From Catajapyx aquilonaris (lineage: Eukaryota), in the NCBI GenBank assembly GCA_000934665.2, contig KZ538010.1, forward strand, positions 1 to 64,000: 64,000 bases of DNA. Reading direction: 5' to 3'. Under the pieces are notes generated by a model. It was not told where the DNA came from. It saw nothing but the letters and a program-made list of their open reading frames with translations, and searched no databases. Made by a program: the position numbers and the translations under genes. Of this stretch, positions 17,317-63,025 are shown piece by piece (position 1 is the first letter of the stretch; the number at the start of each line of letters is the position of its first letter).

Positions 17317-17669
17317 GTTGCATCGCTGGCTGCTGGATTGCTTGCTGGCTGCGGCTGGCTGGCTGGAGAAGCCAGGCAAGCGGCAAGGCAGGCTGGCAGG
17401 GGGAGGGACCTCCCTCCGCCCCGCCGACCGTGGACCGGGGGAGGGGGGGGGGGATGATGGGAACAGGGAACGGGCATTCGGGTGGCCGACTGACTGGCCG
17501 GTTCGGGATTTACAATGTGTGTTCGTGTATACTAACGCGCACTGATACTTGCGTGCGCGAATGGGGCTGGCGGCATCGTGTTATTGCTCTGTCTCCGTGG
17601 CATCGGAACGGGTGGACCTACACTGATCGTGTTGCATCGGCACGTTGTTGCGACTGATCAGCAGACGAG

Positions 17670-37204: not shown

Positions 37205-37279
<75 letters not shown>

Positions 37280-40200
37280 GGGCATATATAGGAAAAGTGA
37301 AGATTATGGTGCCAAATAAATGATGATGGATAGACCCCCGAATAATCTTGCATGCAATACGCAGCCCGCCCGCAATTTGTATAAGCTTGAGTTGGAGATA
37401 ATGCGTGGTGATATGGGCATGATTGTGAGGGCAGAGCCCTAGGTTTATACCTGGAAGTTTGTTTGGAATTTTGTAACCCTTGGTTGTAGCGTGTAAAATT
37501 TGCAAATATAAACTTGGAAATTGCCGCGTCGCACCCGTTGCGTTTGCACGTCAGCCCCCTCTCTAAATAATGAAACAACATGCACTTCCCCAAATGTGGT
37601 TGCATCGTGTGAGTGCATTCCATATGCAAATGTGCACGGAATATGTATGCTGGGGTTGGGTGAGCGCACATCCTCAATATAGGTTCGGGTTTGTTTTTTT
37701 TTTTTTGTAGGTGCACATTTTGAATACAAAGGTACTGTGTTGCAGACGGTACCAAAGTGAAAGCAGACGAAGGATGGTCATGGGCTTGTGACCACTTTTC
37801 TCTCATCCTCCACCTCGTTTCTCTGCCGACGGTCACGGTCATGGTCAAAGACGGTTGTCAAGAGACAGACACGTTCGCCAAATGCCTCTTCTCAGAATTG
37901 CTCTGCACATTTTTCTGCAATTTGCACCCCCTTATCTCATGGCCATGTCGCATTTTCGCTTACACGCCTTTCAGAGCGTATAGAGCCAATGTTGGGAGGA
38001 ATTTTTTTATATTTTTAGGAGGGTATGTGCCAGTAGGATGTTCCCACCACCAGAATGTAGGCCCCCTTTCGTCCACGCCATTGTTTTGTAGACAGTGGTT
38101 GATTTTTGTTTAGGATTCGTTGTGGTGGTCATGTGGGTTATGTTGTACCGTGGGAAATTCGCACCTATGACATTGAGTCACAACTTGCCATCCCGCAAGA
38201 TGACCCATAAAGGCCCAGAGAATTTGCCAATGACTGGAGCAATGGCCCGAAACAAACGTTTCACGCTCGATGGTCCTTCGAGGAGTAACCGGAAGCATTT
38301 GTGGCGGCATTAGGGACGGAAACTCGCCGCAAAGCACCTTCGTCAGTATATAGGAATGTATAACCTACACACCGTCGGTATGATGCCAAGTCCCCGGATA
38401 AAAAGGGTTGAAACGAGGCAAACGACCTTTCCGGCCGAGGTGGCCTCAGGTGCCGTGGCGAAAAGAAGATACCCCCGGTCGCTTCCCAACCACCTTTACC
38501 ATAGTTCTTGGTCTTCAGAGGTACTATATATGCTCCGGACCTTTTTGCAATTGAAAGATAAAAGGCAGTTGGCCAGGCTAAAGCAATGTGGTGTGTCTCC
38601 GGAGTCGCGGCCATATTTCCGGCTGTCACGTTTACAAAAATAAAGTAAAAAAATGGGGCCAGGTTTTATTTCCGTCTAGAAAAATGCGGAGCGAACCTGG
38701 AATTCCATGGTTTGCACTATTTTTTACACATTTTTGTTTAAAAAAATTTTTACGATCATGTAACGGGGGTTTTATAGCTTCTTGGAAATGTAGGGGGGTG
38801 ACATCACTTTTTGGTAGCCTCGCGACAGCCATCAGACGACTGTCGGGTAAATGACCTCGATTCAACGTATACTACACCACCGTACAGGTCGATAAAATGG
38901 GAAGGTCCCAACGTGAGTCAGAGAGGTGTAGTTTTGGTCCCCCCGATTGCAGCTTGGCTAGACCGAAAAATTGACCCGTTTTTTGGAGGCATTTGTTCTG
39001 TAGGTACAAAAAAAATGGGGGGAAAGTAGGCTTTTTGTGTGGCGGCCTTGTTTTTTTGTGAGTACATGTCTGGAGACTATCGTGAAAATATGGGCGGTTG
39101 ACATTGAATTGTTGGAGAAATCTGGTATTATTTGTAGAAAATTGTAGTTTAGAGGTTTACCGCATGGTACAGATTTAGGGTAAATCTTACCCAACAAATT
39201 GTTTATCACAGAAAATATTTTCTACACCTGTCATCAACAGATATCATTTACAGAGTAAAAATATTTTGTTATTTTGGGGGTGAACGGATCTGTCAGCTAC
39301 TTGGTAAACACCCTGTAGTCTCCTTGGCTTGAATGCTAACGTCCTCGTCCTCGTGACTGCGACATCAGCATCGGATTCGCATCATTAGCCAGTCCTAAGC
39401 GCTGATTGGTGCCTTGATTTATAGCCAAAACGTGGTCACACGCGACCAGATATTTTGACGTAATCCAAAAGATTCCATGCTAGATAAATACCATAAACGA
39501 GCAGTGACGTGGAGTGCAATCAATTTTATTTATTTATATTCTATAGTGGGGGGGATTGGATGAAGCCATAGGTAAATTGAGGCAGCCATAGTTGTATTCC
39601 CCTCCTTCTTCTCCGCCTCTGTCATTCCACACCAGCCCCCCATCTTTCCTACTCGCATATATAGCCCCTGGGTCTCCTCTCAAGGGGCTCGTATTTTTGG
39701 ATGGGGGAGGGGAGAGGGAAGTCTATGAGAGGTGGGGATGTCAACTGGATCTGGAGGATTACCAACCCATGGGCTTATCTGCAGCTTCTTGGAGTGGGGA
39801 TGAGGATGAAACACACTGTAGATAAGGGAAGAATGAGCTGATCAGTAGCTGTTTGATTTGTTAGGGATTATTAGTAGGCTATCCTTTGGGTAGAAAAGGT
39901 GAACAATATTGAAAATTTTGCATTGGCCTGCTCATAAACTTGGTGATGGTGTTGGAGGCAAATGATCGATTTCAAAATAACTGTATGCAAATGTAGAATT
40001 ATCCGATATTAGGTGTTCGATATTATCTGAATATTCTGTGGGATCATATTTAGGCAGTATCGATTTGAAGTATGGAATACCTAATACCGCATAGCCCTGA
40101 TATAAAAAAATGACATTCATTCACCTGCCTGGTTCTTGGGATATTATGGCTATTATGCTATTGTGCCATGAAGCCTTCTGCAGAAGTATGATTCATAGCA

Positions 40201-43200
40201 CATGCCTATAATGAGATCCGTGTTGACCCCCTTTTTTATTACATCAACCTACAGCTACAAAGTGCATACTTGATACGTATTTTTGCATAAGAAGGGCTGA
40301 AAATAGATTGGCCACAATGATAGTAGGTCATTGTACCGGATGCCATAATAGCTGCCAAGATTTGAAAGTCTGGCTTCCAAGGCTATCCCAGATTCCCCCC
40401 CCCCCCCCCCCCCCNCCCCCTGGCATCGACAGCTTCGTTAGTTATTCTACCGCAAACTGCAGTCGTTGCAACCTGTCTCGACCAATAGGGAACGTCGACA
40501 ATCGCATGTCGCATCCTAGTTGAAACGTGCCATTTAGAGTTTGTGACAGGCGAATAACCCAATACTGACTGGTCGCGTGATTCACGATTTTTGTTTTTCT
40601 GTTGGCTCCCCTTGCTCTTTGCCAGCCCGTGGTCAGCAGCTCTACCAAATCTCCTGGGGTCGTTGGTCAGCCTATCTCATCATTCTTCCCCCAACCCTCC
40701 GGACAGATGAGCAATTAGGGACACCACCCCTTGAGCAAATCTCTGGGTATATAGGCCTGTACTCCCCTCATTGGCAGTAGGTGCTCGACATAAGCTGCTA
40801 TCCACGTTCTTTTATTGGGCCCTTTGTCGGAACAGAGTTGATTGCCTCATTAGCATGGACATCGACGTGGACGCGACGAATCAATAATCCCGACCGAACA
40901 CTCGTTCAAATGTGTCAGATTTTGGGTGGCGTTGGGGGAATACTAACATGGGGCTTTTGTTAGGGACGAACTTTTTTTTTGCAGGGGCTATATAGCTATA
41001 GGCTTGGAAAATGGCAGCCACATCCTCCGGGCTTGAATATGCGGTTTTCAAATTTTGGAAGCAATCTAGCCGGGGGAATAGTGTGGCAACAGCTTTCATG
41101 TCGCGAAGTTGGTGAAAAAATGGGACCATATGGCTATGAGGCCAAAGACATGTCAATTTCATAGTTAGCAATGGGCAGTGATGGCGGTAGTTGTCAAGGA
41201 TCTACCACCTAATATAAAATGGTCATTTTTTTTTTGTGAGTGAAGAACAAAGGGACATACCAAAGGATTTTTATGGCCTTTTTCCTTGCACGTTTCCAGC
41301 GCCGTTTATTGCAGGGGGGGGGGGGGGGTTAAGGGGGTTCTAAAATGAACTGATGTGAAAACCTGAAGAAAAAGACGTATAAGATTGACCACGTATACAG
41401 GTACTTAGCAAACAATGTCTCAGTCATATAGATTTCAGAGCAAATAAAAATTAGCTTGTTGAAGCACACGAGATATGGCGTGTTGACGTGTGGAAGAAAA
41501 ATGTGTGGGCCCCCAAATACTAATACGCGGTTTTGATTATGGAAAGTTAATGTGCCAGAACATACAACCTGCCCTATCTAATAATTGCGGAAATGGCGAG
41601 AAATCCCGGTATCATTAACTCTTGAGAGTGGGGTGAAAAACAGGGTCTGTTACTCTGGGCAACAGGGATGAAACATGTACTGTACAGTACCTGTGTGAAG
41701 GCGTGCAAATAATGTATGCTGTCAGAAAGTTAACACATTTATCCTGAATCAGGGGTGCTACGCATTCATGCCTGTTGTAGTGGTGGTGTGCGTGGCAGGG
41801 GCTTTTAGCCCAAATGAGATTAGCAATGCAGATTAGTCTGGGGCCATAATTGGCCCAAAGTGCTTCGATAACAGCGGTTTTGTGTCAATGTCAAAGCCTT
41901 TGCCTTGGGAGTCATTTATGGAGTGTACATACTCGCATTTGGTTATCATGAGCAGTGACAATAAGGGTGATGTCATTTCTACCGTAAAAAAAGTCAAAGT
42001 CGAGTTATTTTTGACTTAAAATATATTTTACAGTCTGCCGCCAACCGCAGATATATTGCAGTTCATTTCCTCTTCTTTGAAAAATAATATCCGGCCTGTC
42101 TTTGAGTACAAAAGGGGAAGAAAGATGGTTTTGGCACAATATGCAAAGAAAAGGTGGTGTATGTTACATACAGTGACGATGACCCGAACGGAAGTCCCTG
42201 CACTGGGTGGGCGTGGTACAGCCACGCCCATACATTTCTTTCTGGACGATGTGACAGCATATCCATATCCGCATATATCCTATTAGCAGCAGCGACCTCC
42301 CATGGACCCCTCACGTAATTACCTCATTCTAGGTATAGCCCATCCCCGGTATTTGCAGACAGATCTAATCAAGATGCCCGCAATATTCGGGTGAAAGTAC
42401 TTTGCGGGTTGTAAACAGTCATCGAGCCCAATATCCGGCCAATAAAACTGATATTTCGAAGCGTGTAAAGTGGAGCAGGAGAGTTGATCCCGACTTATCT
42501 GAACCAATCGTGGGGATGGAGGATGGGAGACCATTGGGCGGAGAGTGTTTTTGGGTGGGGAGTGCTGGAAATAAATCTTGTGTTGGGGGAGCCCCTTTGG
42601 TGGACCATGTGTCTCCCGTCGCCCGGAGGTGCCTTCTCTGAAAGATGGGATGGATGGTGGGGGGCACCTTGCCAAGATCAAGATCGGAAGTCCCCCTGAG
42701 TGCCTCTTCTGCTCCAGAAATATTATTCGGAGCTGGAAATGTCTGCTTTAGGAACATTTATTGCACGTAAACAAGAAGGGGAGAAACTGGCGGTTTTGAT
42801 TTCGGGGGGGAAGAGTTTGTGTTGGGCTGGCAAATGCGTTGTAAAGCTTTATGTAATGTAGCAATTTCAACTTCAACCAAAAGTCATCAGGTAGCAAAAA
42901 ATATGTATGAAAACAACAACAATGTGAGCATAACACTAGCCTATCACCAGATTTCCATTTACAACGAAATGTCGTGATGATGTACATTTGGATGGTAATG
43001 AGAAAATTGTTTACTACACCTTATCCTGGCCATATTTTCATGTGAGACGGATGACCTTTTCTGTATTCATGCCACTAGCGCAGTACGTGCTGCCTAACAG
43101 CTTTACAGGTAATGCGTTTTATGCATTTCCCAGCTGCATAAAACTTTGGGTATGACCTCGACTAACCATAAACCATATTTTTATATGCATATATATTTCC

Positions 43201-46200
43201 ACGCGATCTGAACAATTTTGTATGCACGCTTGGTTATTACATGACTGCTGACTGACATAACCCTATTTCACACATCATCACCTCGAACAAGTCGGCTCAT
43301 CACCTGCATCCTGTACAAAAACAAGCTCATAATTATAGGGAACATCGTCAAAAAATGTATAGGTCCAGTGTGAGTAATGCGGGTGAATTAAAGTTTGCGT
43401 AATTAAGTGCGCACTGGTTTAAGACACTGAATCACCCGATTTCAATGACAGTGCCAGTGTCACAAAAACTCTCAGGTATCCTTGGTAAGGTAGCAAGCGT
43501 TACAATGTTCGACCTTATTTCACCATGAGTCACCTCATGACACAAAAAAAACACACAATAGGGCACGTCCTATAGACAATCATGCGACTAGGCGCCCCCA
43601 TTGATACTGTTCAGGTGACTTGACCGGAAGTTTATAGCCATTGGGGTAAAGTGACTCGTCCTTTAATTCACTCGAGGTTAAGTCAGACCATTCGAAAAAA
43701 AAAAATATTGAGAAACGACTGTTCTCACGCCATTTCCATTTCGTGTATTTCCCCTGCTGGTTGGGGTCCCCTCTCTCTCTTGTGGTTAGATTAGGGGGAA
43801 GGGGGACTTTGGGTTGGGGGAGGTGGAAATTGCACCTGCTCCTCCCACCCCTGGGGAGAAGGTAAGTAGGTAAACATGGGGTGAGTCAGCTTGTATCAGC
43901 GTATATGCTGATAAACGGCCGAGCGACAGTCAGGAATTTTTTGAAATGGTAGGGCATGATGTGGTGAATAGAGCATCTCGCAGTCTGATTCACACCAAGT
44001 TTCTTCTCACACGTGCGAATCTAGCCTAGGGTCTGTTGAACGGGCCCTTGAGAAAATATGGGTTCGCCGAATCGAGCAAAAATTTCCAGGAGATTATTGC
44101 CAATATTAAAATATAGTCATTAAATTTTGGCATGCTCTGTACCATATATTTCTGTCTGCACATGCGCGTTGGAACAGCGATTCAGCGAACTATGGTCAGT
44201 CCCCATCATTTTGCTCGCGGCTGTACCGAACTGGACAGTCTGATTTATTGGCTGATATGGATCATGTGGCTAACGCCTAATTGTTGTCCGCACCTCATAT
44301 ATTGCGCCACATGCAGCAGCAGACCATTCGTATAGGTGTTTGTTTCAGGTACACATCCCACCAAATGACCAGATTACAAAGGGTAACGATCATTTGAGGA
44401 CAATACGGTTGACGAAACAGGCATTCCTGGCGTCGCTCGACCTCTCTTAATGGGCATAATTCACGCAACATGCTGGCACCGGCGGTCATTATATGCCCCC
44501 ACACCCCGCTTACGTCAATTCACGGACTCATGCACAGCCTCCATATGGTGCTATACACACACACACACTCGAAGATTGATGTATCCAACATTGTTCCTAT
44601 TATTATACTTTAGTACAAGGTGGCACGAGGAAGTACAAGAAATTCGACGTAACTTGTTTTTTGGGGCAGTCAGATGGACCGCAGGTGCGTGAAATGAGGA
44701 TGGCGTGATGAAGGCGGCAATTTCAAGGAGCGGTTCCGGCAACCCCCCCTCTTGTGTACCTCCTCCTACCCCTAATCAAGAGGACGTGCAACAAGGGTAA
44801 AAATACCGGGGCTGAGTAGTACACCCACCTTTTCTCCGCCTATTCCAATTAGGGTGATCTCAGCTGGTAGATAACCAGGAAATGGACAAAAGTACGGTGA
44901 CACACCCCGATCCGGGCCACAGTGTCAATCAGGGTGTCGCACCATATTCAAATGAACCGAAACACTCCAACTTGTCATGTATTCCACTAATGCGAATTCA
45001 CCCCTATTATTGCCCTGTGTTTGTGAAATTAATCTGCATACTGATCCGTTGGAGGGGAATGTGAAAGGGGGAAGTAGAATGAATATATTGAGAGGGGGGG
45101 GGGGGGAAGATGCCACTTGTTGCTGAGGGGTACGACGGTGTAGACGGCGACGCCGGCGCTGTGTAATGGGCGTGGTCCGGGCGTCTGGGTCGTCGCCCTT
45201 CGATTAATTAAAAACGTGGCTGCAATGCAGCTGGGTATACTCTCTCGAGTACATGGAAACGGTCCATTTGGAGAAATAGGGTGTGGGGGTATCCTTCAGT
45301 GCTCCAGACGGAGCCTGGGGTAGGTTGAGGGGGGGGAAAATTGCTGGGAATTTTTTTTTCGGGTAGGCGTCGGTCGGATCGATTGGTATAGCTGGTGCAC
45401 ACTGGCGCCGGCACGTGGCAGCCACACCCTTCCCATCTAGTACCGGCAGATAAGAATACCAAAAAGGCGAAGAGCTCACCGGCAATACATTCGTCGTATA
45501 ATGACGATGACGCGTATTTCGCAGTGAGCCGCAAATGATGTCATGCGGCTAATAAAAATAATTCCAGTGAGTCACCCAAGTTGCTGCAGTGCACCATCCT
45601 ATAGTATGACGAAATTTTGGATTGATTAAAAATTTTGTACGTTTTTTGTTTTTTTTGCAATGTCCCTGCATGGAAGAAAAAAAAATGGGCTGAGTCATGA
45701 ACGCGGCACCGTTGCCGTGTGTATGACCTGGAATGTCCCGGGGGGAATTGCAACCCGGAAGGAACTGGAGGATAGAGAAGGTGCAAGATGCACAGGCGGC
45801 CGACTGCCAGGAACGCAGTAGTGGGTGGGTGGGTGGGTAAATTGCTGACCGCCTCTTCGGCTCAGAGATTTCTTAGCATGTGACCTGCTGGGGGGTCAAG
45901 CAGCAATACCGGGGCCATTTCTGACCTAATATTTATTTTATTTATTAATATTTATATTATAAAATTTATTTATTATGGGATGTGGACGTGGCAACTACGC
46001 ATGGGAACTGAAAGGTGGTGATGGTGGAGGGCACCCCCCCCCNNNNNNNNNNNNGGGGGGGGGGGGGGGGGGTACGTAGGGGGGGAGCAGTGGGGTGGGT
46101 TCTTCCTGCTGCAAGAGATTCCCTGGCAGTTAGTCGATGGTGTCGGAGCCGTCGGTGGTGCTTGTGAGCCGGCCTGTCAAGTATTAGTGTGCCGGGTGTT

Positions 46201-49200
46201 CTGTGTGTACGGTACGTGCCTGGTTGGAAAATTCGTGCTTTGTGGAGGAATAGCCCTGTTTGGCCGTTGGAGCAGCTGGTGTCAACAAGTGATTTTGGGG
46301 GAAATATGGGTGTAGATTTGCATGCAATATCTGGCAAAATATGCTGGTGCTTTTTTTCTTCAAATTAATTAATGGTGTTATCAGCGCTGGGACAAAAAAA
46401 ACAACAACAAAAGGTCTGCTTCCTGAATGTGTCAATAGAGTAGAGTTTAGTAGGGGAAAATGACCTTTTGAGCTGATAAAAGTTCAACAGTCCCACTGCA
46501 CGTTCTCTCGTGGGTGACGCGGATTATCTGGTGGTCAATATGTGTTGGAAGTAGTGCGACTGCTTTCACATTATTTTATTGAACTGCGGGGGTTGATCAG
46601 TAGATATTGTTTGAAAGGGCAGCTGGAATTAGCATATATTGGCAGTGCAGCTTGGTTTTTTTGAGAAAAGCGATAAATTATGTGGGAGGAAAGATGAGGT
46701 GTTGCGCTATCGTTTTATAGTCAGGGATAAAAATAGATGGTGACGCTGTGGTGTTTCCTAGAGCTAATAAGTGTATCCAGATAGCAGCAGTAAATTTAAT
46801 GTCAGGGGCACCACATATGGGTGCATATCGCAAGGTTCTGGCTGAAAATTTACACTCCATGCAATTCAATTATTGTGGACCCACTGATAAAAATCACTGA
46901 TTTATGGGACAGCTGGTGGATACTATCTCATTAAGTGGTGTGTTAAGTGGGTGAGATGGAACAGATATGGTTCATTAATATTTTTCTCTCACTGCAAACT
47001 TTCTTCTCATCAATTGCAGAGAATTTGGAAGGTGTGAGCTGCCGACTAGTCCAGCAGGCCAAGCAAGGAGGGTCGAGTGACAATATCACAGTGGTAGTGG
47101 CGTTCCTGAAGGCGCCTGAAGTGCTGTCGCAGAGGCCACTCCCACCCTTGAATGAGCCAGCAGTGAACCAAGGCAGCGAGGCCAGCAGCAAGCAACAGTC
47201 AGCCCAGGAGCACCAGCAGCCTGATCAGGCTTCCCCGTGCAGCCCCTCCCCTGGCAGCATGAACGGCCAGCAGGCTGACACAGACTTCCAGAATTCATTT
47301 GCGGCCACCAACGGAGGAGGACTCTATAATCCTTTCAAAGGGTCCTCTTTTGGTTCAGAAGACCAGGTACGTTCAACGTTCATGACTATTTGCACAGGCG
47401 GCTAACCGTATGATTTAGATTTTGAAATAAGTTTCCTGACATAACTACCACAGAAACTATCAAAAACCCTGAATTCTGTCAAGTGAATTTGCAGAAGGTT
47501 GACCAGACTGTTCCATTGAAATTAGCAGGGTGAGAACAGAGATGGAGCGATGGAGCATGCTGACCTGCTGGATGGGATGGAGATTGCCATGGGTGCGCTG
47601 AAGAATGGCGGTAGTGTCGAGGCAACTCCAGCCGATTCAGGGTTTATATCCCCAGCAACCCATACCCTTACAAGCCCCAGCGATCCGTGTGATCCTAGTG
47701 TGACACAGGTGGACTGGAACCTCCAGAACGATACGCCTGCTCTGCAGAAGGATACCGAGATACTAACTGGACGAGAGGAGACACCCACCCCACCCATTGA
47801 TGGTGAGTGTTCACTTGTGTACCATTATTTTGGTGAATACAGCAATTACATGCTGTGCCTTATTCAGCAGATATTACTTGACAAATTGGGACAGCGAGCA
47901 TTTTCAGGGTTGACAGCTACATGTTGGGGAGTCAGGAGGGGGAGATACTTTATAATGTTTATCACCGGGATTGTGACAGGAGCAAGATAAATCCAGCAGG
48001 GTTGTCATATCGAGTTTGCTGACAGGTCAGAGGATGGTGGGGAAGCTGGCTTAGTGGAAAACTGACCTCCTCTGAGAAGATGACCTCATCATTCCTCGGC
48101 CCAGAAAGGGTTTTGCAGCTTGCCTTCCAACGAAAAGAGCAGGACCATATATGGGGACGGGAGGTCACACCACACGTTTGGTGTTACATTTTAGAAAGAA
48201 TTGCCAGGGTCGTTCAACCATTTCTCCGGAAGTTCTTCCCCGAAAATCCTTTCCCCCCCTCCCTCATTTCTCCAGCCCGACATTGCCCATTAATCTTTAA
48301 GGAGAAAAGGGGTTGAGCCCCTCCCCCGCTTTGTAAGTGCTGGGTTTTTTTTTAAAAAAATCCGCCGAACGGTATTGGGAAGATTTAGATCGGTTTTTTG
48401 GGGTTCACCCGGCAACTAGGGGTTAGGGGTCGTGGACCGTACAGGTGGCCCCCGGGGAATCTGGGGGGATATATGGCAAGGGAGGGGGATGGGGGGTGAT
48501 CGATGCCCCCACCATACCCCAGCAGCATTCTCTTGGCAGCTGGGAGAATCAATGATGTGGGTTTGCCTGGAGGGTTTGCGTGGGCGGTGCTGTTGTCTCG
48601 ACGGCGCAGCAGCTGCTTGCATCTCGATAGGAGATGTTACTCAGATAATCATGAGCTGCGGGGGGGTTTTCCCCATGACCACGAACCTTGGGGATCGATG
48701 GGAAAAGTGCAGTCTCATCCGCAGGTAGATGAGCCACCCTGTGCGTTCCTGCGGGGGCTGGCTCAAATCCAGCTGTTATTTTTACCCAACTTGAGAATAG
48801 TTACCACACACACACACACACACACACACATGATGAGGCACATGCCCTCTTACTTGGGGGCTCGAACCCCCCTGAAGCCAAGTTGTGCGAAAACCTTTTT
48901 TGTGCCCGAAGTTTTCTTTCCGGTGGTCGCCTTGACCTTGGTTTTGGAAGACGTGTGAAAAGAAACGAATTTTTTAAGCTTAGAAAAAATAGGAGGGGGA
49001 TGGGAAGATTTGATGAAAAGGCGGCCATCTTGAGGCCAATTCAAGGTGCCAATCGGGTGCACCTGTGGCAGGTTTGCCAACATGGTCAAATTGGGGGATG
49101 ACGGTCCCCCTTGGCAGCAGGGGGGGGGCAACAATGGCAGGGTTGCCAGCATGTTTAGTTGTCACATATGTGTGGTGTTCTGAAGGGTATGGGAGCGGCG

Positions 49201-52200
49201 TAAAGATGGGTGAGACATGACAACATCGCTCCCCTCTTTTTTCCCCCCCCAATCCCCTTTTTGCCCCCCTCTCCCTACCCGGTGTGTTCCCCCCCACACC
49301 CCAGACGGCCGTCTCTTCTTTTCCCGTCTGATTCCTCCTAGCAGCTCGCCTCCACATTTCGAGCAAGGTACCGGCATCTTGGAACTTGATATCTGTGCCC
49401 CCCCAACCACATTTTTGAGTGGTTTCTGAGTGGAGATTATTTTGAGTTGTACGGTACCCGGTACTGATTGGCTGATTAATTGGAAATTAGTGGAATGGTG
49501 AGTTGAGGTTACTGTTTTGGTTGCTTTGTAGGGTCTGCGTTGGGGAAGAGTGAGCCTGCACCGGAGAACCTGGTGACGGAGGACGCAGAGGACTCGGAGG
49601 ACGACTGGAGCTACTACCAGGTGGAGCCCAGCAAGAGGTCGCCGCTGGAGGTGGACCAACTGGCCGACGGAGGGACTAACGCAACTAAGGTGATTGCCGT
49701 TGTTCGCAACAATCAGTGTGGCGGGTTTGGAGTTGAATTTGGAGCAGCGTAATAGCATTAATGAGTGGATGAAGAGATGAGCTTCTGTCAAGTTGGTTAC
49801 ACTGGTCATTTCCACAAATGCAGGGCAGAAATAGACAGTGCCCTACATTTTCAGAGGGTTACTGCAAAAGTTGTAGTGAATTTTGCACTCGGGAAGTTGG
49901 TTGGCACCAAGGAGCCTTGCCAACTTGACGGATTATAAAATGGCATAGGGCTGTCGTCGAGAATCTCGAAATTTTTCAATTGAATTTTTAAATGTCGATG
50001 TAAATCTCCACTTGATAGGAAATAGGATTGTGCGTGACCATTAAATGGAGACTTGATCAGGTGGGAAGATTAGGTTCGGGAATGTTTTTTTTTCCGGTGG
50101 AAATATTCAAGCTAGTCGCTGAAATTGTAAGTATTATGGTGCTGCAGAACCATTGCGTCTAATGCATGCACAAATAATGTTGATAGGCTAATTGGGTCTG
50201 TAAAATGCCATTTCATGGGATGTGTGTGTTCTGAATGTTGGCATTAATTGTGTCAACCCAAGTGCACACATGTGAACAGGAAGGAGGGCTTTCTGGGATT
50301 TGCCTAGTTCAATAGATCCTACATGACCTATTACAGGCAGTAAAGAAGAAATCTTGGGACAGTGCAGCTGGAATGTGATAGTGAGGTCCTCTAATACGTT
50401 AACTCGGACATGTTTGCATCTCATGTGAACACTGCTAGCGATTCTTGCTGGCCAAGGATAGTTCTTCAGGTTTTTATAATCTCTCCGTCATTGATAAAGA
50501 TGAAAATGAGAGGTCTGCATTGATAAATATTTTTAGGGAAACTGCAACAAGTCATGAGTTTGACCATATTTGATAAAATATTTGACTGATGTTTATGTCA
50601 TCAGGCTTTGTTGCACTTATTGGGATTCCTAACTTTAGCGAATTGATTTTTTTTTCTTAATTTGATACAGTTGTAACAATTTTTAATGTTAACAGGACAT
50701 TTTGTGGAAATGACTATTTCACTTTTCATTCCACTGCCACTTCTTTCCTGTTCCTTGGCCTTAATAGTTGTGTTAGGGCAGCCTTCAAGTTTCAAGGCTT
50801 TTTCTCACTGGGGATACAGGGCATTATTTATTGCCCTTTTGGAGTAACTCAGGATGTGAGGTTTCTTGAAGAATGTTTTACATCGCTTGATGAAGAAACT
50901 TCTGGGTTTTAAATCATAATTTATTGAGCATTCACGACACAGGTGAAAGTGTTCACAACCGAGGGTTGTTGAAGGTCTTGATGCATTTGTCCGAGATCGT
51001 AATGCTAATGTCAGAGTGGCCCCATTAGACCAAGTTGCCACGCATTCTAGATTTTCTGCTGCTTTCGTGCCATTTTTATTAAAGTATATTAGTAGTAATT
51101 ATATGCATATTAAGTGCAATAAGGTAGATGTTCTTAACAAGGCAATGCACCATTTCAGATGGAAAAGTCTCCAGTTCCCTCACCCCAGCCACCAATGGAG
51201 CCTGCTGCTGAAAAGGAGGTGGTAGCATCACCTCCTGTTTCAGCTGCACCTGCTGCTGGCCCAGAGGAAGTTGAAGACCTGTTTTTCTCAAATAAATATC
51301 CATCGTCGAAGTCTTCTGACACCACCCTGATTCCTGAGTCAGATCGCTCCAAGCTCATGGATGACGACAATGTCAACGAAGTGGTTGCAGTGCACTCGAG
51401 TGAAGATTTCTTTGCTACACTACCTGCTCAATCCACTTCATCCCAGGAGTACTTCAGTGCTGTGGATGACCTGGCCGGAAACAACCCGTTCCTCTCAAGT
51501 GGATCATCGGCAACGCTGCTGGAGGACCAGATCATACCTGATGGGGTATCCTTGGATGTAGCTTTCCCGAAACCACTTGAGATGGAGAGTGCTGTACAGC
51601 AGATGCAAATGTCCGGATTCATGGGTGACGACCCTATAGAACCAGAACTGAAAATGGACACTGCTTACTTGGTGCACCAGGATGAGCCAGAGAAGTCATT
51701 CTCTCCTACCCAGCTGAATCCAGAGGTACCTGCATTTGTGCCAGCCTCCTGCACCAGTCCGGTACTGGTGGAAGGCATGGCTGACCTGCAGTTGGATAGC
51801 TCCGAGGCCATTCCTAAGGAAGTGTATCTGGACCCATTTATGGCACTGCAGAAGTCTCCTGAACCATCACGACAGGAGCACGTGTCTCCTGAGCCTTCAA
51901 ACATACCAATGTCACCTGAGGCACCCTTATCACCTCAGCAAACTGTCACGACTTTCTCGTCGTTTTCACCAGAACCAGGTTATGTGCCACCTGTGCCCAC
52001 TTCAGAGCCACCAGCATTCACTCCTGAGCCACCGACCAAGTCACCAATTTCTTCACCCGAGCCTCATGCGCAGTCGCCTGTTTATTCACCTGAACCAATG
52101 GCCAGGTCACCAATCTGCTCACCTGAGCAACAGGCAAAATCACCAGTGCTGTCTCCTGAACCACAGGGAAAATCGCCAATCCTGTCACCCGAACCATTGG

Positions 52201-54017
52201 CAAAATCACCAGTCCTGTCTCCTGAACCACAGGGAAAATCACCAATCCTGTCGCCCGAACCACTGGAAAAATCACCAGTCCTGTCTCCTGAGCCACAGGC
52301 CATGTCACCTGAGCCACAGGCAAAGTCACCAATCTTGTCTCCTGAGCCACAGGCAAAATCACCCGAGCTCCCATTGTCCCCACCACTTGCCCCCCAACTC
52401 ACACCTATGTCTGGATTTGAGCCTCACTTCGAACAATCCTTTGCTTCCTCAGAACCACCTGTCCTCTCTCCTGTTCCTTCTTCTGGTTTTGCATTCTCAT
52501 CTGAGCCACCACAAGTTGCTGATCATGAGTTGATGTCACCTGAGAGAGAGAAGCCATATGAAGGTGCTCTGTCACCCACAGTGGAGAAGTCACCTGAACC
52601 TATGAAGCAACTGGAACCAGAATTTGACCTTCCATCACCAACAATGGTGGCAGCAAGGCCTGAGCCAACACAAGTGGAGTTGACCCTGTCGTCAGAGCCT
52701 ATTTTAACACCCGTGTTTTCCCAACCAGAACCTGAGACTGAACCACCAAAGCTGACTGAACCCAAACTGGAAGAGCTCTTTGTGGCCAAGGACCTGGAGA
52801 GGAATGAGTCCAACAGCGAGCTGCTTGATGTTGTAGAACCACACCCTGCAAGTGACTTGTCTGCTGCCATGGCTGAGCTGGAAGTTAAATCTAGACCAGA
52901 AGACCTCAACCTGGCTGCGGCCACAGCCCCATCTGTAGAGAAAAAGATGTCCAAGACCACCACACCAACCAAGCCCAAGGTGGGAGCCGCCGCAAAGTCA
53001 CCCACCAAGCCATTGTCGGCTAAGTCACCCACCAAGACAGCTCCAGCAGCAAAGGCACCAGTGAAATCAACTACCAATGCACCAAAGTCAGCTGCTCCTG
53101 CCGCAGCAGCAAAGAGGTTGACTCCAACTACTACAGCACCAGCTGCATCCAAGCCACGAGTGTCATCAGCCAGGGCGTCTGTAACCACAGCCATTGCAGC
53201 CAAACCTGCTTCGTCAGCTGCCACTGGAGCCAAGCCTGCTTCATCAGCTGGCCCTGGAGCCAAACCACCAGGAGCTGCAGCAGGAGCAAAACCCGATGCG
53301 AAGCGGCCATTATCCACTACTGCTGCAGCCAGGAAGCCATTGTTGGCAACTGGAGCAACCAGGCCTGTAGGTCCAGCTTCCCGCACTCCAAGTGCCAGTC
53401 CAACCAAACCTCCAGTGGCCAATGGGGTGGCTTCTAGGACAGCTGCAGCAACCAAACGACCTGTGCCAGCTGAGAGCAAGCAAGCAAAGGAGACAGCCAA
53501 CAAGGAAGTAGCTGCCAAATCTGCAACAGTGTCACGAGTGGCTGCCACCAAGAGTTCTGCTCCAGCCACCTCAATGACCAAGAAGGTGGCCGAGGTTAAA
53601 CCCAGGGTTACTCCTACCACCACAGCTGCAAGGGCCACCATGGCAGCAAAGGCACCAGCCAAGCCTGCACCAAATGCAGCCAAGTCGGCTGTCCCACCTC
53701 GGTCTACGGCCCCTGCAAAGCCAGCCGAGCCCAAGAAGTCTGCTTCAGCCACCATGTCGACAGCTGCTTCTAGGGCAGCCGCCAAGCCCCTGAGCAACAC
53801 CAAGACTGCACCTAAGCCAACGACTGTGACTGCTGTCAAGAAGCCATCTAGTGCTGGCAAGGTTGGGTCAGCATCCAAGACCAAGTCTCAGGAGGGTGAG
53901 GCCACCCCTGAGAAGAAGGAAGTAGCTGCCGAGACGGCTGAGCTGCCTGACATCCCCAAGGTGGAGAATGGGGTGGCTGAACCACAAGAAAACTCCGCTG
54001 CTGAGGCACACGTGTAA
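20915..54017 (+). CDS. PPM1E: PP2C-family phosphatase, PPM1E/PPM1F-like, with long low-complexity C-terminal extension (about 1583 aa, 11 exons)
   Basis: Exons 20915-21090, 25223-25350, 25531-25739, 25803-25994, 32319-32468, 32559-32652, 35891-36055, 47020-47366, 47529-47802, 49532-49689, 51159-54017, phases consistent; intact PP2C motifs RRKMEDRH, VFDGHAG, WLGDSQA, RVNGQLAVSRAIGD, LACDGLWD, GSSDNIT. Joining of exons 9-11 is inferred from splice sites and phase only. Confidence 0.85.
26892..27608. mobile_element. MITE, PIF/Harbinger-like
   Basis: About 69-bp TIR AGGTCTATTCTCATATCTGCGAGTAGTCGAAATATCGTTGCG...; perfect TTA TSD (26889-26891, 27609-27611). Confidence 0.9.
28115..28259 (+). mobile_element. 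5'-truncated copy of the 15241 SINE family
   Basis: TTCTCGGGGTTCTCCCGTTT..ATCAAAATCTATCACAG..GATCCCCTAAGAGGCCCAAGAAGGCCTATCACGGGGTATCC(TTA)n aligns by eye with about 15375-15546. Confidence 0.8.
28261..28541 (-). mobile_element. SINE family 2, inverted copy
   Basis: Reverse complement closely matches 31753-31935 (ACCGAAGCAGT..CCGACTGCTAATCGGGAG..AGGCCACAGCCGCTTCCTTCCGTCCCTATCC). Confidence 0.85.
28541..28612 (+). repeat. (TTA)n microsatellite
   Basis: About 24 perfect TTA units. Confidence 0.95.
29215..29470 (+). mobile_element. Possible degenerate tRNA-headed SINE
   Basis: A-box-like TGGCCGAGATGG (29221), B-box-like GATTCGATACC (29265), A-rich end at 29461-29470; no TSD seen. Confidence 0.4.
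30628..30760. mobile_element. Short piggyBac-like MITE remnant
   Basis: TTAA-CCC start then TGTAATGCCCACTGGGTCATATTTGGCACAC with inverted copy at 30730-30760; right terminal GGG-TTAA missing. Confidence 0.6.
31752..32093 (+). mobile_element. Full-length tRNA-derived SINE family 2 with (TTA)n tail
   Basis: B box GTTCGAATCC (31811-31820), (TTA)n tail, 13-bp TSD TATATATAGCAGA at 31739-31751 and 32094-32106. Confidence 0.9.
32166..32288. mobile_element. Small PIF/Harbinger-like MITE
   Basis: TIR GGCCGCATTTACATG vs GGCCATGTTCACATG; TTA on both sides; ends 30 nt upstream of PP2C exon 5. Confidence 0.7.
37204..37278 (+). repeat. (TAA)n microsatellite
   Basis: About 24 TAA units with two single-base interruptions. 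Confidence 0.95.
52038..52370 (+). repeat. Coding 33-bp tandem repeat, KSP(V/I)LSPEPxx
   Basis: About 10 units of 11 aa, core alternating KSPVLSPEPQG / KSPILSPEPL(A/E). Confidence 0.9.
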
Positions 54018-55761
54018 CTGCCTGACGAAGCCATCTTTCTTCCGGATTGAATTTGTAGAGGGTTGGGGACGCTTTGTTTATTTTCCGGCCCACTATTGTG
54101 AAATGAAACCTTTTTAAGGAAAAACATAAAAAACGAACGAGCATTTAGAAGCCTGTCCCACTTTTCGTTGTCCCTCTTCCACCCAACCCATAGCCAAAAG
54201 ATATCAGACTGAGAGCTACTCAGCTTTTTATGGTTTTGGCTTATGCAGATATCATGTCCTTTCCCTTACCCCCCCCCCCCCCACCCACCCCCCACCGAAT
54301 AAGCCCGCCGCATGCGAAATTAGTTTTTGTTCAAGGTCACACAATATTATGTGAATGTAGTAACTGACAAAGTACAGTTTAATCCTCCTATACTGTAACT
54401 CTGTAAGCACNNNNNNNNNNNNNNNNNNNNNNNNNNNNNNNNNNNNNNNNNNNNNNNNNNNNTTTTTTTTTTTTAATATTTGTATTTGGAATCAGTGCTT
54501 GCATCCAAACGCAAAGGAAATTTGAATGTTATAACTGATCCTTCTCGTGGAAACCTTTTCCACGAGAAGGATCTGCTATGATGCTCCATGTATTGTGTTT
54601 TTGAAGGCTTTGCGGGCGATTGCAGGTTGATTGTACATTGTTGCTTATGCCTCTTTTTTTTTTTCCGTGCTATCCCATATGGAAGGTAGGGGCTACTTGT
54701 TTTATACTGGATCGAGTCTTCCCTCCCAGTGGAAATGAATGTACGAGAGGGAAGGCTGGTGTACCCCTGCCACCCCTCCCCCCCAATTAACCCAGACAGA
54801 AAAATGAAGGAATAAGAGAATGGAAAAATGTGTTGTTTTTTCTAGCGTGAACATGCGTGTGATTCTTCCATGCCCTGTTCCCTGTGCCCAAGAAAATGAG
54901 CTTTGTTGCTTTTGGAGTAAATGATCAGATGTCAGTCTTCCTGGCTGTTGCCTTTTCTGTACCTTCTCCCCTCCCCTTCCTCGAACAACTGGTTACAATA
55001 CTTACTTTACATATTATCATTACCTTTTTGTCACTGTCATAGCTGGATGGCTTGTGGGCACGTAGTGCAGATGAAGATGCAACAAAATCATGTTTTTAAC
55101 ATTTTGATGTTGGTTTAGTTCTTTTCCCTACCCCAAGTTGCCTCTCATTGATTTGAGCTTAGCCGTGCAAGGTTGCCGAGGCCTTTATTTTATACACAGC
55201 AATATAGGAATAAAAAGAGAAGTTTCTTGTACAACTTGTACTGTGATTTTTCCATTCTTCATTTTTATTTCAATAAAAGTATTGATATATAAAATGTACT
55301 GAAGTCGCATACTTGTGTCAACTCCCCAACCTATTCGCAATGCTAGATTTGGACAACAACACGGCCATGGATAGAAATAATTTTATCAACAAGATCCGAG
55401 GTGATCCAGTACCAATTGGATTTCAATTGAAATGGAATGACCTAAACATATAAGTATTCTCATCATTGTTGGGCAGATGTGCCAATAGCAACAACGTGCA
55501 CTAGGCAGGATCGAAAGGAAAGAAAAGGCTCATTTACATCCTCTACTCTTTTATTACATCACATTGAGAGACAAACAAACGAGTATTTTAAAAATACATC
55601 TTGTGAGTCAGGAATTAGACTGAGAGATGCGAGTTAAACAACGGACGGGTCCTATTTGTTGTCGGAAAATGGAAATGAAAGTTCCCAGTCGTCCAGTTAA
55701 ATAAACCAAAATACCAGGTGAGTTTGGAATGAATCTGAAAATTTTTAAACCCATTGCTTTA

Positions 55762-58700
55762 CTACCCCTTGTTCTTCCCCTCATCTTCCTTGGCCCCTCC
55801 ATCCCCTTTACCATCATCCCCCTTACACCCACCCTCCTTGTTATTATCTTTGCTGAAACTTGCAACCCAAGAGGAGCTACTAGCCCCTCCCTCCTTCCTG
55901 AGTGGGGCTGATGGCACTGGCACAGACGCCCGAGGTGGAGACAGTGGCCTCTCGTGCACCGCAGCTGCTGATGGCGTTCCAAATCTGCTGTTCCCTCCCT
56001 TGTCCTCTAGTGAGTCGAGGGACATTTGCGTCAGCATGTTCTGGAATGACTGCAGTGACTGCTGGTACAAGGAGGGCAGTGGCACCACATCAAATCCGTC
56101 ATCATGCCTCTCTGAGTGCCGCTTCCCTTGGCTCTTGCTGCGGCAGTATTTCCCTCCGTGTGGGTGAGGGAGGAATGGTGGTGGCAGTGGCGGAAGCCCA
56201 AGGCTGCCAAAAACCTTGCACGTGTCACGTGACCGATCCAGGTTTCCAGCCGACTCAGGGGTGGCATCAATTGCACCAAGAAGGCTCTGTCTTGGTCTGG
56301 GAGCAGCTGCCGATATCGACGAGGCTGATGCCGAGGTAGAGAGTGGTGTGACAACTGCAGTGGACAGCGATGGTGAGGATGAGGATGCATTGGGAATAAA
56401 TGATGATGGGCTTCCGGGGTATCGCAGTGGACGCCGCCATGCTGGGACCTTAGAGGAAGTGGGTGCAGAGACTGGCGAAGTGCTTTGGAGGCCAAAGAGC
56501 TGAAGGAAGGCCTCATCATCCATCATGGATGTATCAGGTGAGGTCTTGGCTGCAGAGGATGAAGCACTTGTGTCTAGCAGGCCGTCCAGGTCAGACAAGA
56601 CTGAAGTGTGGTGGCGCCCAGAGCGTGGACCAGTTGCCGTGGTGCCATACTCCACATCATTGTCCACCGACATGGTCTCATCATCCACATCATTCTCATC
56701 ATTGGAGTTATCATCCCCCACTGTCAATGAGGAGACATCACCAGGGGCTTCCAGCTCATCCCCATCCAGATCCTGCTCCAGGAGATCCTGCCCAAATTGA
56801 AATGTACCTTTTAAGCATCGTGTCCTCTGTCACCTCTTCCTTGGAAAATAGTATCAACCCACCTCGCTATCGCTGCTGCTAGATCCAAGGGGCCCAGAGT
56901 CAAGGTTCCCAATGGCAACAGAAGGGGCCGATGCAGACTTGTCCACAGCCTTTCCTGAGGATGCCCTGGGTCTGGGTCTAGGGCATCGAAGACCAGAGGA
57001 GGGATGAGTGGGAAAGAACCTTGGGGAAGGATGGTGCAGGGACATGAGGGAGGCGGCAGAAGAGAGGGAAATGCTGGAGCTGGATGGCATGTGGCCAGAC
57101 AGAGAAGAGGACACAACTACAGTGCTGTTACTTGTACTGCTGCCAGAGATAACACTTGTGGTTGACGTGCAAGGAGAGCATGTTGATGACGACGACGAAA
57201 TGGATGGGGTGGATGGCTCCATAGGTCCAATGGTCCCTGCAGCAGGGGCATTGCTGTTTGAAGGAGTCACACCAGCATTGCGAGAAATTTCAATGGCCAG
57301 GCGCTAGAAAAACAAGTTAAGATGTCACGAGATCTTTAGGGCTTGTATCCTACATACATGTCATTGGTTTGACTCCTACCTCCTTCATTTCATTCATCTG
57401 AATTACATATTGTCCCTGGACACCTACAAGCTGTCCAATGTACCACTGCTGGTCTCTGCACCTCTGAAAGAAGGTGGGTGGCCGCACCTGGAACCTGAGT
57501 ACCAGTGTGTCATCATCTGGGTGCAGGTACCCTTCCTGAGCCAAGAGGTCGAGGCGGAAAAAGCGGTTGTATCCCCAACACTCTCCAACCTCAAAGTCGG
57601 AGGCAAATTCTCGCACAATGTTCTTGGAGGTATCCCGACTGCCCTGGTGGATCATCTCCACCCGGTACTCGTACTTGGAGGTCTCAGGGAGGCCAGCAGA
57701 CAGCTCCAGAAACACAGAGAGGTAGTTGCCTCGAACTACTCCATTGCCATCTGGATAAACCTTGAGGCGCCAGCAGAGGCCATTCACATGCAATGGGGGG
57801 GAATATACAGGGTCGGCCTTGTGTTGCAGCTGGCTGAAACGCTGCATCACGAAGGTGCTACCATCATATGGCGGAACAATCTCACTGGTGGAAAGAATGG
57901 AAAAATATGATCCAACTGAAAATGCAGCCACTGCAATGCACAATCATCACCTCTGGAAGTCTGCAGGGACTGGGGCAGTGACAAAGCTGGGCATTGGTGT
58001 CTTCCTGAGCCTCTGCAGCATCTGCAGCAAGTCTTGGCTCTTACCAATGAGCTCACTCTTTGAGTTGATGTGCAATTGCTGTTCCACATCCTGGAGGATG
58101 GACTCCAGCTGCTCTGTCTCCTGAGTCAGTGTGTTCTTCTGGCCCATCAGGGTCAGGAGCTTCGACTTGAGCTGGGAGTCCAAGCGAGCAATCATCAGCT
58201 CTACTGCATTGCGGATCTCTCGCACCTTTTCATCCTTTGCTGCACGAACAGACTCCACGTTGCGTTCCTGAAATTACCCACAAATCAATAGCAAATGGGA
58301 ACACAATCGATGAACATGTTACATACCACTTCCTGGACCAAACTAATGAGCTCCATGAAGCGCCTGCGAAGGTGAGCCACTTCATCTTTGATCTGTGCCA
58401 AATGGTGGTCATACACCTCTTCCTGTGGACGGAAGGTGTGTCCTGAGTGGGTTCCACCCCAGAGGGCACACTGATGGCAGATGCACTTGGCACATGTCCA
58501 GCAGTACACCGACATCTTCTCCTGGTGGGTCTCACATCTGAGGAATTTGCATGAGCAAGTGAGTTACATCCACACAACTTTCAAAGGAGCATTAAACCTG
58601 ACCTGTCCTTCTCAACTTGGTCTCCACCAATGCTTCCTCCTGAAGCCTGCAGGGTGTCAAGTTGCTGAGTGACCTCCTCCACCCAGCGGCAGTTGACCAG

Positions 58701-58982
58701 CTCGTGTAAGTGGAGTGTGGCCCTGCAGTGTGGGCATTGTGACCTCTGCTCCGTCAGCCATCGTCTGATGCAGAGGTAGCAGCACAGCTTGGAGCAGTGC
58801 GGACAAAGGTGGGCATCCCTCAGCTTCTCCATGCAGATGAAGCATCGGAACACCTCCGCCAAACTCTGCGTACACAAACGTAGGTCTTAGCAACCACCTG
58901 GCATGTGGGCATATTATCTGACCTCCACAGTGTGGTCGTCCTTCTTGTTGGCTGAGGATCCTGGCTTGTCTCTGGTGGCCAT
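55762..58982 (-). CDS. TRIM37: E3 ubiquitin ligase TRIM37 (about 940 aa, 7 exons)
   Basis: Exons 58982-58923, 58865-58603, 58537-58327, 58267-57951, 57884-57380, 57303-56863, 56787-55762; [30 protein letters not shown]-box, coiled coil, MATH domain [24 protein letters not shown], acidic [10 protein letters not shown] motif. Confidence 0.95.
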
Positions 58983-59480: not shown

Positions 59481-60505
59481 TTACCAGGGAACTTTACTTC
59501 CATCGTACTGTATGAACTGTCCATTGTGCTTGTGGGTTAGAAACTTCAGGACGTTGAGTATTCCTCCTATGCTCTCCTCTGTTGTCAATGGTGCTTTTGG
59601 ACCTCCAAGACCTGTCTTGACCCATCCCGGATGAAGACTGACAACCATGATGTTATCCGCAGCCAGGTCATTGCTCAATGATCTCGTGGCTGCATTGAGT
59701 GCGGCCTGAAATAATAGTGTAACACTAGAGTCTACATTGCTGCACAACATTATGGAATCAATGCAAAGTCAACTCAAAATATTATCAAGTGACCCTTCAT
59801 GCAGAATATTCAACCTTGCTGCATCTGTAAGGATAGAAGCCTCCTTCGACATTCTTCTCCATTGAACCCAAAATAGAGCTCATGTTGACGACAGCTGCCC
59901 TGGAGACTCCAAAAGGTTTGTCTGTGTTCTTCGCAGCCGCCCTTTTGAGCATGGGAACCATCTCCTTGGTGAGGAGAACGGGGGCCAGAGTATTCACCAT
60001 AAAAGTGTCCACCATCGCCTCCGCCTTGACCATCCCAATGCGGGTAAACTTAGGAGAGGTGCCAGCATTGTTGATCAGGACATTCAGACCATCTTCTCCC
60101 ACCACCTTGTCAACTTCTGATGCCACTTTGGAGAAGCTGGCAAAGTCATGCATATCTGTAGTACATGTTAGAGCACATCAATTACTGCTGTGATTAAACA
60201 TACAAGCGCAGTGTGTATGACCCTTTCCAGACATACCTAACTTGACCAGGTGTATGCATGGATGCTTCTCGGCCAGACTTTTCAGCTCCTGAAATGTGCA
60301 TAATCACATTACTTGTTTCTGTGCAAGTGCAATGTGCTCATACCTGTGCAGTGTCTGGATTCCTGTAGGTGGCAAAGACGTGCCTCAGTCTGTCAGTCCC
60401 ATCCTGTCCCTCATCCCTGAGCACCAGCTGCCTGACAAACTCCAGTCCGAGACCCCTGTTGCATCCGGTGATGAAGAAGGATGAGGGCAGGTTGTGCAGG
60501 GCCAT
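59481..60505 (-). CDS. sni: Short-chain dehydrogenase/reductase, C-factor/sniffer-like carbonyl reductase (259 aa, 4 exons)
   Basis: Exons 60505-60344, 60288-60237, 60155-59815, 59705-59481; ITGCNRGLGLEFVRQL, LINNAG, NMSSILGS, YRCSKAALN, LHPGWVKT, YDGSKVPW. Confidence 0.92.
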
Positions 60506-60746
60506 CTTGTACACCCCACCCATGAAGGTATCCCACATATTCGGTCCTACCTCCTGGTGACCCTCATGGGACACAACACAGCACGAAGGCCACCAAATCC
60601 AGCCTTGACCCTTGGCCCCAGCTGGCAGGGATGGTATCGACTGTTGCTACTGAGCATCGCCCACCCACACACACACTCACATGTGAGCAACATACGTTGG
60701 ACGCATTGCAGGAAAAGGTTGGAGACCGACTGTCTGAGGCTGCTCC

Positions 60747-63025
<2,279 letters not shown>

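Follow-up and report, generated by a model that had tools for sequence, protein, structure and literature searches.

A PPM1E/F-type phosphatase gene of Catajapyx aquilonaris that probably continues into a Map205-family tail

Results

Layout of the phosphatase gene

We analysed a stretch of Catajapyx aquilonaris DNA of 64,000 nucleotides (hereafter the window: positions 1 to 64,000 of the forward strand of contig KZ538010.1, assembly GCA_000934665.2) that carries, on its plus strand at 20915–54017, exons of a PP2C phosphatase followed by a long reading frame rich in short motifs. This interval is probably one gene of 11 exons, whose longest product, of 1,583 amino acids, would combine a PP2C phosphatase of the PPM1E/F type with an acidic linker and a tail of the family of Drosophila Map205. 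PP2C phosphatases are Mn/Mg-dependent Ser/Thr enzymes; Map205 is the textbook case of a protein that keeps Polo kinase sequestered and inhibited on microtubules. The exons, whose numbering agrees with that of the original prediction, have AG/GT borders and join into a single open reading frame (ORF) of 1,583 codons, free of internal stops. To this joined model a profile of the whole insect family described below (A1) aligned in one continuous stretch (residues 7–833, 679 bits), which covers the N-terminus, the PP2C domain, the linker, the acidic motif and the position of a PAM2 motif. A second profile (A2) was built from 23 tail proteins.

The start codon lies in exon 1 (20915–21090), together with an N-terminal region common to insect PPM1E/F-like proteins (..FVESFAQGLNREDPLPV..DWTLQYL). 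This exon gave a tblastn high-scoring segment pair (HSP) with the fused beetle protein P0030 at 20930–21091 (E 3e-8) and an A1 match (E 2.1e-13), and its N-terminal extension matches an insect family whose members carry the source names protein phosphatase 1E-like or 1F. Exon 2 (25223–25350; ..NCPSTLITHLTRKVLEEF..) was placed by an A1 match on the ORF 25110–25361 (E 0.0066, colinear with its neighbours) and by its AG/GT borders and phase. The PP2C domain starts in exon 3 (25531–25739; RRKMEDRH), which was identified by A1 (E 6.7e-28), by tblastn and in the ORF listing. It continues through exon 4 (25803–25994; YYAVFDGHAG; A1 E 7.4e-36), exon 5 (32319–32468; SGTTVV.. and LAWLGDSQ), exon 6 (32559–32652; WRVNGQLAVSRAIG) and exon 7 (35891–36055; FLILACDGLWD; A1 E 9.1e-25). 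Exons 5 and 6 are two separate stretches of the ORF 32256–32663, each matched by both PF00481 and A1. Exon 8 (47020–47366; A1 E 6.7e-13, A2 E 1.4e-9, and a spliced contig) ends the domain (GSSDNITVVVAFLK) and adds an acidic Ser/Gln-rich extension of 83 amino acids.

The original prediction, made from the letters of this DNA, had described an intact PP2C domain, and judged by its sequence the domain is indeed intact. PF00481 matched the exon ORFs 25782–26009, 32256–32663 and 35869–36117 (E 1.5e-8, 3.1e-21 and 5.6e-13) over profile positions 34–232; A1 covered the remainder of the domain, and both family profiles matched every PP2C exon, in order. The metal-binding and catalytic motifs essential to PP2C enzymes are RxxMED, DGHxG, GDS, DGxWD and DN, and the corresponding motifs are all present in frame: RRKMEDRH, FDGHAG, LGDSQ, DGLWD and SDNITV (DNITVVVAFL). 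Identity to the PP2C domains of insect family members was 42–53%, alike for all insect orders and similar to the identities between insect orders. Among solved structures, the best relative of the family profile was the CaMK phosphatase 4jnd_A (E 1.7e-47); when a single exon of the window was compared with the PDB, PPM1B scored slightly above the CaMK phosphatase.

Were the exon 8 donor at 47367 left unused, the frame would stop at 47403–47405. Three tail exons follow in frame (47529–47802, 49532–49689 and 51159–54017), and AG acceptors and GT donors mark the borders of exon 8 and of these three; with the single 1,583-codon frame, this bears out the earlier proposal of in-phase tail exons. Exon 9, which has GT..AG joints on both sides, encodes an acidic linker ending in REETPTPPID (47772–47801). 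Exon 10, likewise joined on both sides, carries an acidic Trp motif, EDSEDDWSYY (49588–49617), and no Met. The coding part of exon 11 comprises 952 amino acids and a stop codon (54015–54017), read from its translation and from a contig over 51157–54269 with no mismatches; as a whole it matched A2 at E 7.2e-10 with high bias. The contig continues past the stop and places a 3' untranslated region at 54018–54269 at least. A run of Ns at 54411–54462 limits how far this region can be traced; like the run at 46043–46054 and the single Ns at 36180 and 40415, it lies in or beside a homopolymer or simple-sequence tract.

The product of exon 11 has a strongly partitioned composition. A PAM2-like motif, TQLNPEVPAFVP, is the translation of 51708–51743. 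About 600 residues are net acidic (net about -60), and the exon 11 product holds 13 SPEP and 39 SP dipeptides. A 33-nt (11-amino-acid) tandem unit recurs 6.4 times at 52089–52300, with 11-amino-acid SPEP repeats over about 52089–52368. An A/K/P/S/T stretch of 300 residues follows at about 52959–53858, with a net charge of +46 and a KQAKETANK motif at 53478–53504, and the protein closes with an acidic end of 52 residues (net -5; 53859–54014). The positions previously assigned to EDSEDDWSYY and to TQLNPEVPAFVP were exact, and the SP-rich repeats, the basic region and the short acidic end were all found where a tail of this kind had been described.

Spliced contigs across the junction between phosphatase and tail

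Splicing was assessed with contigs from X1 (32 million letters), the only public run found to contain this stretch; no run listed as RNA did. X1 contains 0.46 of the stretch's words, close to the exonic share, and we compared its contigs with the window over 34300–54290. A 271-letter contig joined 47257–47364 to 47524–47686 (exon 8 to exon 9), and a 3,413-letter contig joined 47659–47801, 49531–49687 and 51157–54269 (exons 9, 10 and 11), both with GT..AG borders and no mismatches. Because the joint between exons 8 and 9 occurs in a spliced contig, splicing does use the final PP2C exon's donor and carries the phosphatase frame into the tail. The original prediction had named reads joining exon 8 to exons 9–11 as a check, and these joints are present as 8–9 on one contig and 9–10–11 on another. 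We infer a full-length fused mRNA in Catajapyx.

The same contigs bear on a different account of the locus, in which two transcription units lie end to end. Here the phosphatase would end in or just after exon 8, at the read-through stop 47403–47405; a separate Map205-like gene would start in or just upstream of exons 8 and 9, from the ATG at 47259 or one at about 47550; no fused protein would be made at this locus, and the shared frame would be a relic. Several features of the contigs favour this account and weigh against a single gene. No single X1 contig connects any catalytic exon with the tail or spans exon 8 to exon 11, and the two contigs overlap by only 28 identical letters (47659–47686), where a bridge needs 31. 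The kind of run X1 is not on record, its RNA-like character showing only in its spliced contigs. An in-frame ATG (47259) lies two bases downstream of 47257, the first position of the contig across the exon 8/9 junction, so that some transcripts may start within exon 8 and be devoid of the phosphatase; more in-frame ATGs lie within exon 9. The gene's contig coverage starts at 47257 as well, but the blank before that point, which takes in exons 1–7 and the initial 237 bases of exon 8, is uninformative, as some records are removed by a filter. Over 35857–37713 there were only 22–25-letter matches from unrelated contigs, and the depths of the two contigs, 3.6 and 16.8, are unfit for ranking parts of the gene.

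Observations from other species fall on both sides. The beetle tail-only models P0003 and P0031 start with MRTLAQ and then enter the shared exon, a thrips annotation splits the locus, and Drosophila Map205 was cloned as a stand-alone microtubule-associated protein, according to its description (PMC2116399). In Tribolium, however, the exon 9 linker motif is part of the phosphatase product (P0032, 525 amino acids, ending just past REETPTPPADA), and in other species 15 short contigs carry fused ORFs, unspliced. Within the window, the exon 8 donor is in use with the frame preserved across its junction, each of the four junctions keeps to the PP2C frame, and no loose contig end marks an alternative 5' exon at 47257–47690 or at the other joints. 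We therefore regard two separate units as unlikely and retain the single gene.

Tail motifs shared with the insect family

We searched the window for relatives of the tail with profiles drawn from the insect family; the Map205 family is taken here as the set described by A1, A2 and the Map205 peptide of PDB 4J7B. The window's 2,640 six-frame ORFs were all searched with a profile of the linker region (71 insect sequences), and 3,359 six-frame tiles of 60 amino acids with short sub-profiles, among them a linker sub-profile from 58 insect sequences. The EDSEDDWSYY exon was the only significant match of the linker-region profile among the 2,640 ORFs (E 5.7e-5), and it was also matched by A1 (E 5.3e-5), by A2 (E 3.7e-4) and by hhalign (79%, E 1.6e-5); the motif corresponds to E[DE]SEDEWNY, which is near-invariant in the family (77 of 83 proteins). 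Among the tiles, the linker motif REETPTPPID at the end of exon 9 was the top match of its sub-profile (E 0.0022) and was 9/10 identical in tblastn with beetle P0030, and KQAKETANK in the basic region was the top match of its own (E 1.6e-4). The linker, acidic and KQ.KETANK matches are colinear with the order of the family, and the tblastn HSPs of beetle P0030 are colinear across all parts of the gene. When the short-motif sub-profiles were run against whole ORFs, nothing was found in the 959-amino-acid ORF, and tiling at 60 amino acids recovered the KQ motif; we attribute the miss to the way HMMER corrects for composition when a sequence is long and biased.

The PAM2-like motif fared less uniformly. 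By hhalign, TQLNPEVPAFVPASCT aligned to the family PAM2 (93%, E 2.4e-7). The HMMER family sub-profile, by contrast, reached only E 3.1, and Pfam PF07145 matched neither a 35-amino-acid nor a 264-amino-acid segment nor the tail as a whole, with E values allowed up to 10; the Pfam gathering cut-off is 20 bits, and beetle P0003 scored 24.2 bits in the same test. The window's motif also lacks the family's invariant Ala and near-invariant Glu. The Polo-binding motif of the family was undetected in the window, the best match of its sub-profile being non-colinear at E 0.41 (ELEVKSRPEDLN). This sequence, at 52875–52910 on the plus strand, resembles the second half of the motif (beetle EKEVKSRPSDVD; 8/12 identical) and is placed after the SP repeats, not after the PAM2 position. 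A sub-profile of a C-terminal NGV motif was likewise not significant (E 0.34).

These shortfalls, which count against a Map205-family tail, raise the alternative that the tail resembles Map205-like proteins in composition only, as do MAP4 and many disordered proteins, and that the motif matches arose by chance with no homology behind them. Broader searches lend this some weight: the tail had no match in Pfam or NCBIfam, and, repeat matches aside, whole-tail searches turned up no relative. One search scored 8,000 candidates and gave three matches, two of them to CHAMP1 repeats and the third to beetle P0003. Against 1.84 billion representatives all 23 matches fell on the SPEP repeats (query 254–477), none with the architecture. 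The first 264 amino acids of the tail matched none of 3,575 candidates when compared with longer proteins, and an Atlas search with the beetle linker region gave no usable match. The Atlas look-alikes of the tail itself were MAP4 clusters at 0.78–0.80, below the level that counts, and we rejected them. The PAM2 and Polo-motif sub-profiles, as above, were not significant.

Chance resemblance would nevertheless have to account for three independent short sub-profiles that each single out a predicted exon, in family order, after an orthologous PP2C domain with the family's N-terminal extension, and for an exon border after the linker motif at the very point where beetle isoforms diverge. Because the family profiles pick three predicted exons as their only significant six-frame matches, the tail's likeness to the Map205 family appears to exceed biased composition, and we consider a resemblance in composition alone very improbable. 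The original prediction had made its case depend on significant similarity to Map205 relatives, and for the linker, the acidic motif and KQAKETANK that similarity is present and colinear.

Fused phosphatase and tail proteins in insects

One relative recovered with the tail, beetle P0003 (Zophobas morio, 1,213 amino acids, with a Pfam PAM2), matches the window in the order of its parts: ESEDEWNY, then SQLNPNAAEFVP, then repeats of the SPEP type, then a basic A/K/P/T end. Its 90% identity cluster also contains the fused proteins P0030 (1,773 amino acids) and P0028 (1,736 amino acids), each with PF00481 and PF07145. Also in the cluster are Tribolium proteins under the name 'protein phosphatase 1E-like' and a fragment with PP2C only, which is called '205 kDa microtubule-associated protein-like'. 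A family search seeded with the linker-to-PAM2 region of beetle P0030, and hence biased to insects, returned 82 proteins. All of the named ones come from Coleoptera, Blattodea, Phasmatodea, Orthoptera, Hemiptera, Hymenoptera and Diptera, and Thysanoptera were added separately. PF00481 is carried by 44 of the 82, including a sand-fly protein; 15 of these carriers lie on contigs of less than 8 kb, and because the contigs are so short their fused ORFs of 1,300–2,000 amino acids must be unspliced. In a pattern check of 83 proteins, PP2C motifs, acidic motif and PAM2 occurred together in 42, the acidic motif in 77 and PAM2 in 81. The phosphatase and the tail thus appear, by sequence, as one protein in at least eight insect orders.

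Public gene models of the family vary. The survey is tempered by two points: many fused proteins of insects come from automatic gene prediction, and the locus is split in some annotations. In the genome annotation of the thrips Frankliniella there are two neighbouring genes, 'protein phosphatase 1F' (355 amino acids) and a 'serine-rich adhesin' model (1,201 amino acids), whereas two thrips contigs of 5.6–6.0 kb encode both parts as one protein of 1,758 amino acids (P0100/P0124 vs P0120–P0123); some public annotations probably split the locus wrongly. Beetle isoforms diverge at the exon 9/10 border, with fused products reading ..PPADA|VHDGG.., tail-only products MRTLAQ|VHDGG.. and phosphatase-only products ..PPADA|GEFPFK. 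Because beetle models show all three from one locus, tail-only and PP2C-only products are likely, by analogy, at the window locus too.

The fusion is less of a novelty than the original prediction implied. Fused models are already public under names such as titin-like, mucin-like and '205 kDa microtubule-associated protein', the last borne by Tribolium castaneum P0040 (1,449 amino acids, PF00481). The window gene is a further member of a fusion family that is visible in databases yet undescribed. It is a divergent and probably non-insect member, with altered forms of tail motifs that are invariant in insects; if its source is indeed not an insect, the fusion is older than the insects.

The link to Drosophila Map205

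Compared with the PDB, the A2 tail profile found as its top match 4j7b_C, the Drosophila Map205 peptide crystallised with Plk1 (E 8.1e-9). This match sits directly after the PAM2 position, which itself matched the PAIP2 peptide 1jgn_B (E 0.0054). A PDB search with beetle P0003 alone gave no Map205 match, and the midge protein P0109 (Clunio), which starts with the last 36 residues of a PP2C domain, matched 4j7b_C on its own (E 0.0023). Because the top match of the family profile is 4j7b_C, the insect family appears to include Map205, and in most of the species examined its members read together with a PPM1E/F-type phosphatase. The comparison with Map205 was made through the 4J7B peptide.

The original prediction had also suggested that Map205 derives from the tail of a PPM1E/F gene. 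The survey is consistent with this, given the 44 of 82 proteins with PF00481, the Tribolium '205 kDa' model and the sand-fly protein. Tentatively, and with a little less than even confidence, we suggest that a gene ancestral to the insect radiation encoded a PPM1E/F phosphatase together with the whole Map205 module (acidic Trp motif, PAM2, Polo-binding motif and basic microtubule-binding region), that fly Map205 is a phosphatase-less derivative or isoform of it, and that in most insects Map205 holds Polo beside PP2C and poly(A)-binding protein (PABP).

Neighbouring genes

Just upstream of exon 1 of the phosphatase, an ORF at 17658–18119 on the plus strand matches a PANTS-like domain (PF11326, E 3.1e-12). 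Downstream, exons on the minus strand (57350–58886) encode, in order, a RING finger, a B-box and a MATH domain, by appearance a TRIM37-like gene, followed by short-chain dehydrogenase exons (adh_short; 59481–60646) and, at the end of the window, a hemopexin-repeat exon (63584–63880). On the plus strand at 60900–63025 is a thioredoxin-reductase-like gene (Pyr_redox_2, Pyr_redox_dim) whose last exon reads ..TVTGC and then TGA GGT TAA, a GC-U-G end of the selenocysteine type. To our knowledge, insects have no thioredoxin reductase with such an end, and on this ground the source of the window is probably not an insect. Rfam gave no matches in the window and no SECIS element at gathering score.

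Discussion

Proposed function

If the gene is read as a fusion, its parts suggest how the product might work. Its vertebrate relatives target activation-loop phosphates on CaMKs, PAK and AMPK, as well as cytoskeletal substrates. In the window product, the basic region of 300 residues could anchor such a phosphatase on microtubules through the acidic surface of tubulin; this idea draws on its composition and on the basic region of the 205K microtubule-associated protein from Drosophila, as given in its description (PMC2116399). The acidic SP-rich spacer of 600 residues, with its 39 proline-directed Ser sites, would offer kinases a means of tuning this tethering, and partners may dock at two short sites, the acidic Trp motif, which is conserved, and the PAM2-like one. 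In insects, where PAM2 is canonical and is followed by the Map205 Polo-binding motif, the partners would plausibly be PABP and Polo. In Catajapyx the docking of PABP and Polo is doubtful, because PAM2 is degenerate and the Polo motif undetectable. Binding of the window product to microtubules and to PABP is something we infer.

Implications for Map205

One paper on Map205 notes, for humans, "the absence of a clear Map205 orthologue" (PMC4210448), and another states that the role of Map205 is not strictly conserved (PMC11682627). The sequences examined show that outside Drosophila a PPM1E/F-type phosphatase usually has the Map205 module as its C-terminal part. If the ancestral gene did encode both, the 'missing' Map205 orthologue outside flies is to be sought at PPM1E/F loci. 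Beyond parking Polo, Map205 in most insects would then hold it beside a PP2C, a class of enzyme that strips activation-loop phosphates, and beside PABP. Testable ideas follow: that a phosphatase sits beside Polo on microtubules, that Map205-type proteins bind poly(A)-binding protein, and that PPM1E/F enzymes, known for their cytoskeletal targets, once had a microtubule anchor of their own. The link between Map205 and PP2C apparently exists only in unremarked database entries; our full-text literature search, which left most subscription journals outside it, found no paper linking Map205 to PAM2, PPM1E, PP2C, PPM1 or 'phosphatase 2C'.

Comparison with known systems

Known enzymes of similar make-up are vertebrate PPM1E and PPM1F (CaMKP-N/CaMKP, POPX1/2), which like the window product have a PP2C domain with an N-terminal extension. 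We know of no description of a microtubule-type basic tail or a PAM2 motif in them. The C-terminal extension of PPM1E gets cleaved off, according to one report (PMC3749536).

Drosophila Map205 resembles the window tail in its layout, which runs from a long acidic part to a basic one, as set out in the 1990 description (PMC2116399). The same source reports acidic and basic regions in the 205K protein, a region of 232 amino acids required for microtubule binding, and no similarity of that binding region to the MAP2/tau binding motif. Map205 has been described as a stand-alone microtubule-associated protein with no phosphatase, whereas the window product starts with PP2C; the window tail, unlike Map205, has no detectable Polo-binding motif and a degenerate PAM2.

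Among PAM2 proteins (PAIP2, ataxin-2 and others; PF07145), the insect family passes Pfam with LNP[ND]AAEFVP at 23–24 bits against the cut-off of 20. Compared with this motif, LNPEVPAFVP of the window agrees in position at L, N, P, F and P yet receives no Pfam score.

The counterparts of the window gene are the fused insect proteins, such as P0030 and P0040. Compared with these, the window gene lacks the invariant Ala and Glu of PAM2 and the Polo-binding motif, and its acidic motif and PAM2 position lie about 215 residues apart, as against 35–110 in most insects. In the fused insect proteins and in the window alike, an N-terminal extension, the PP2C domain and the REETPTPP linker come in the same order, and after the linker both continue with a SEDEWNY-type motif, the PAM2 position, an SP/PE-rich spacer, a basic KQ.KETANK region and a short end.

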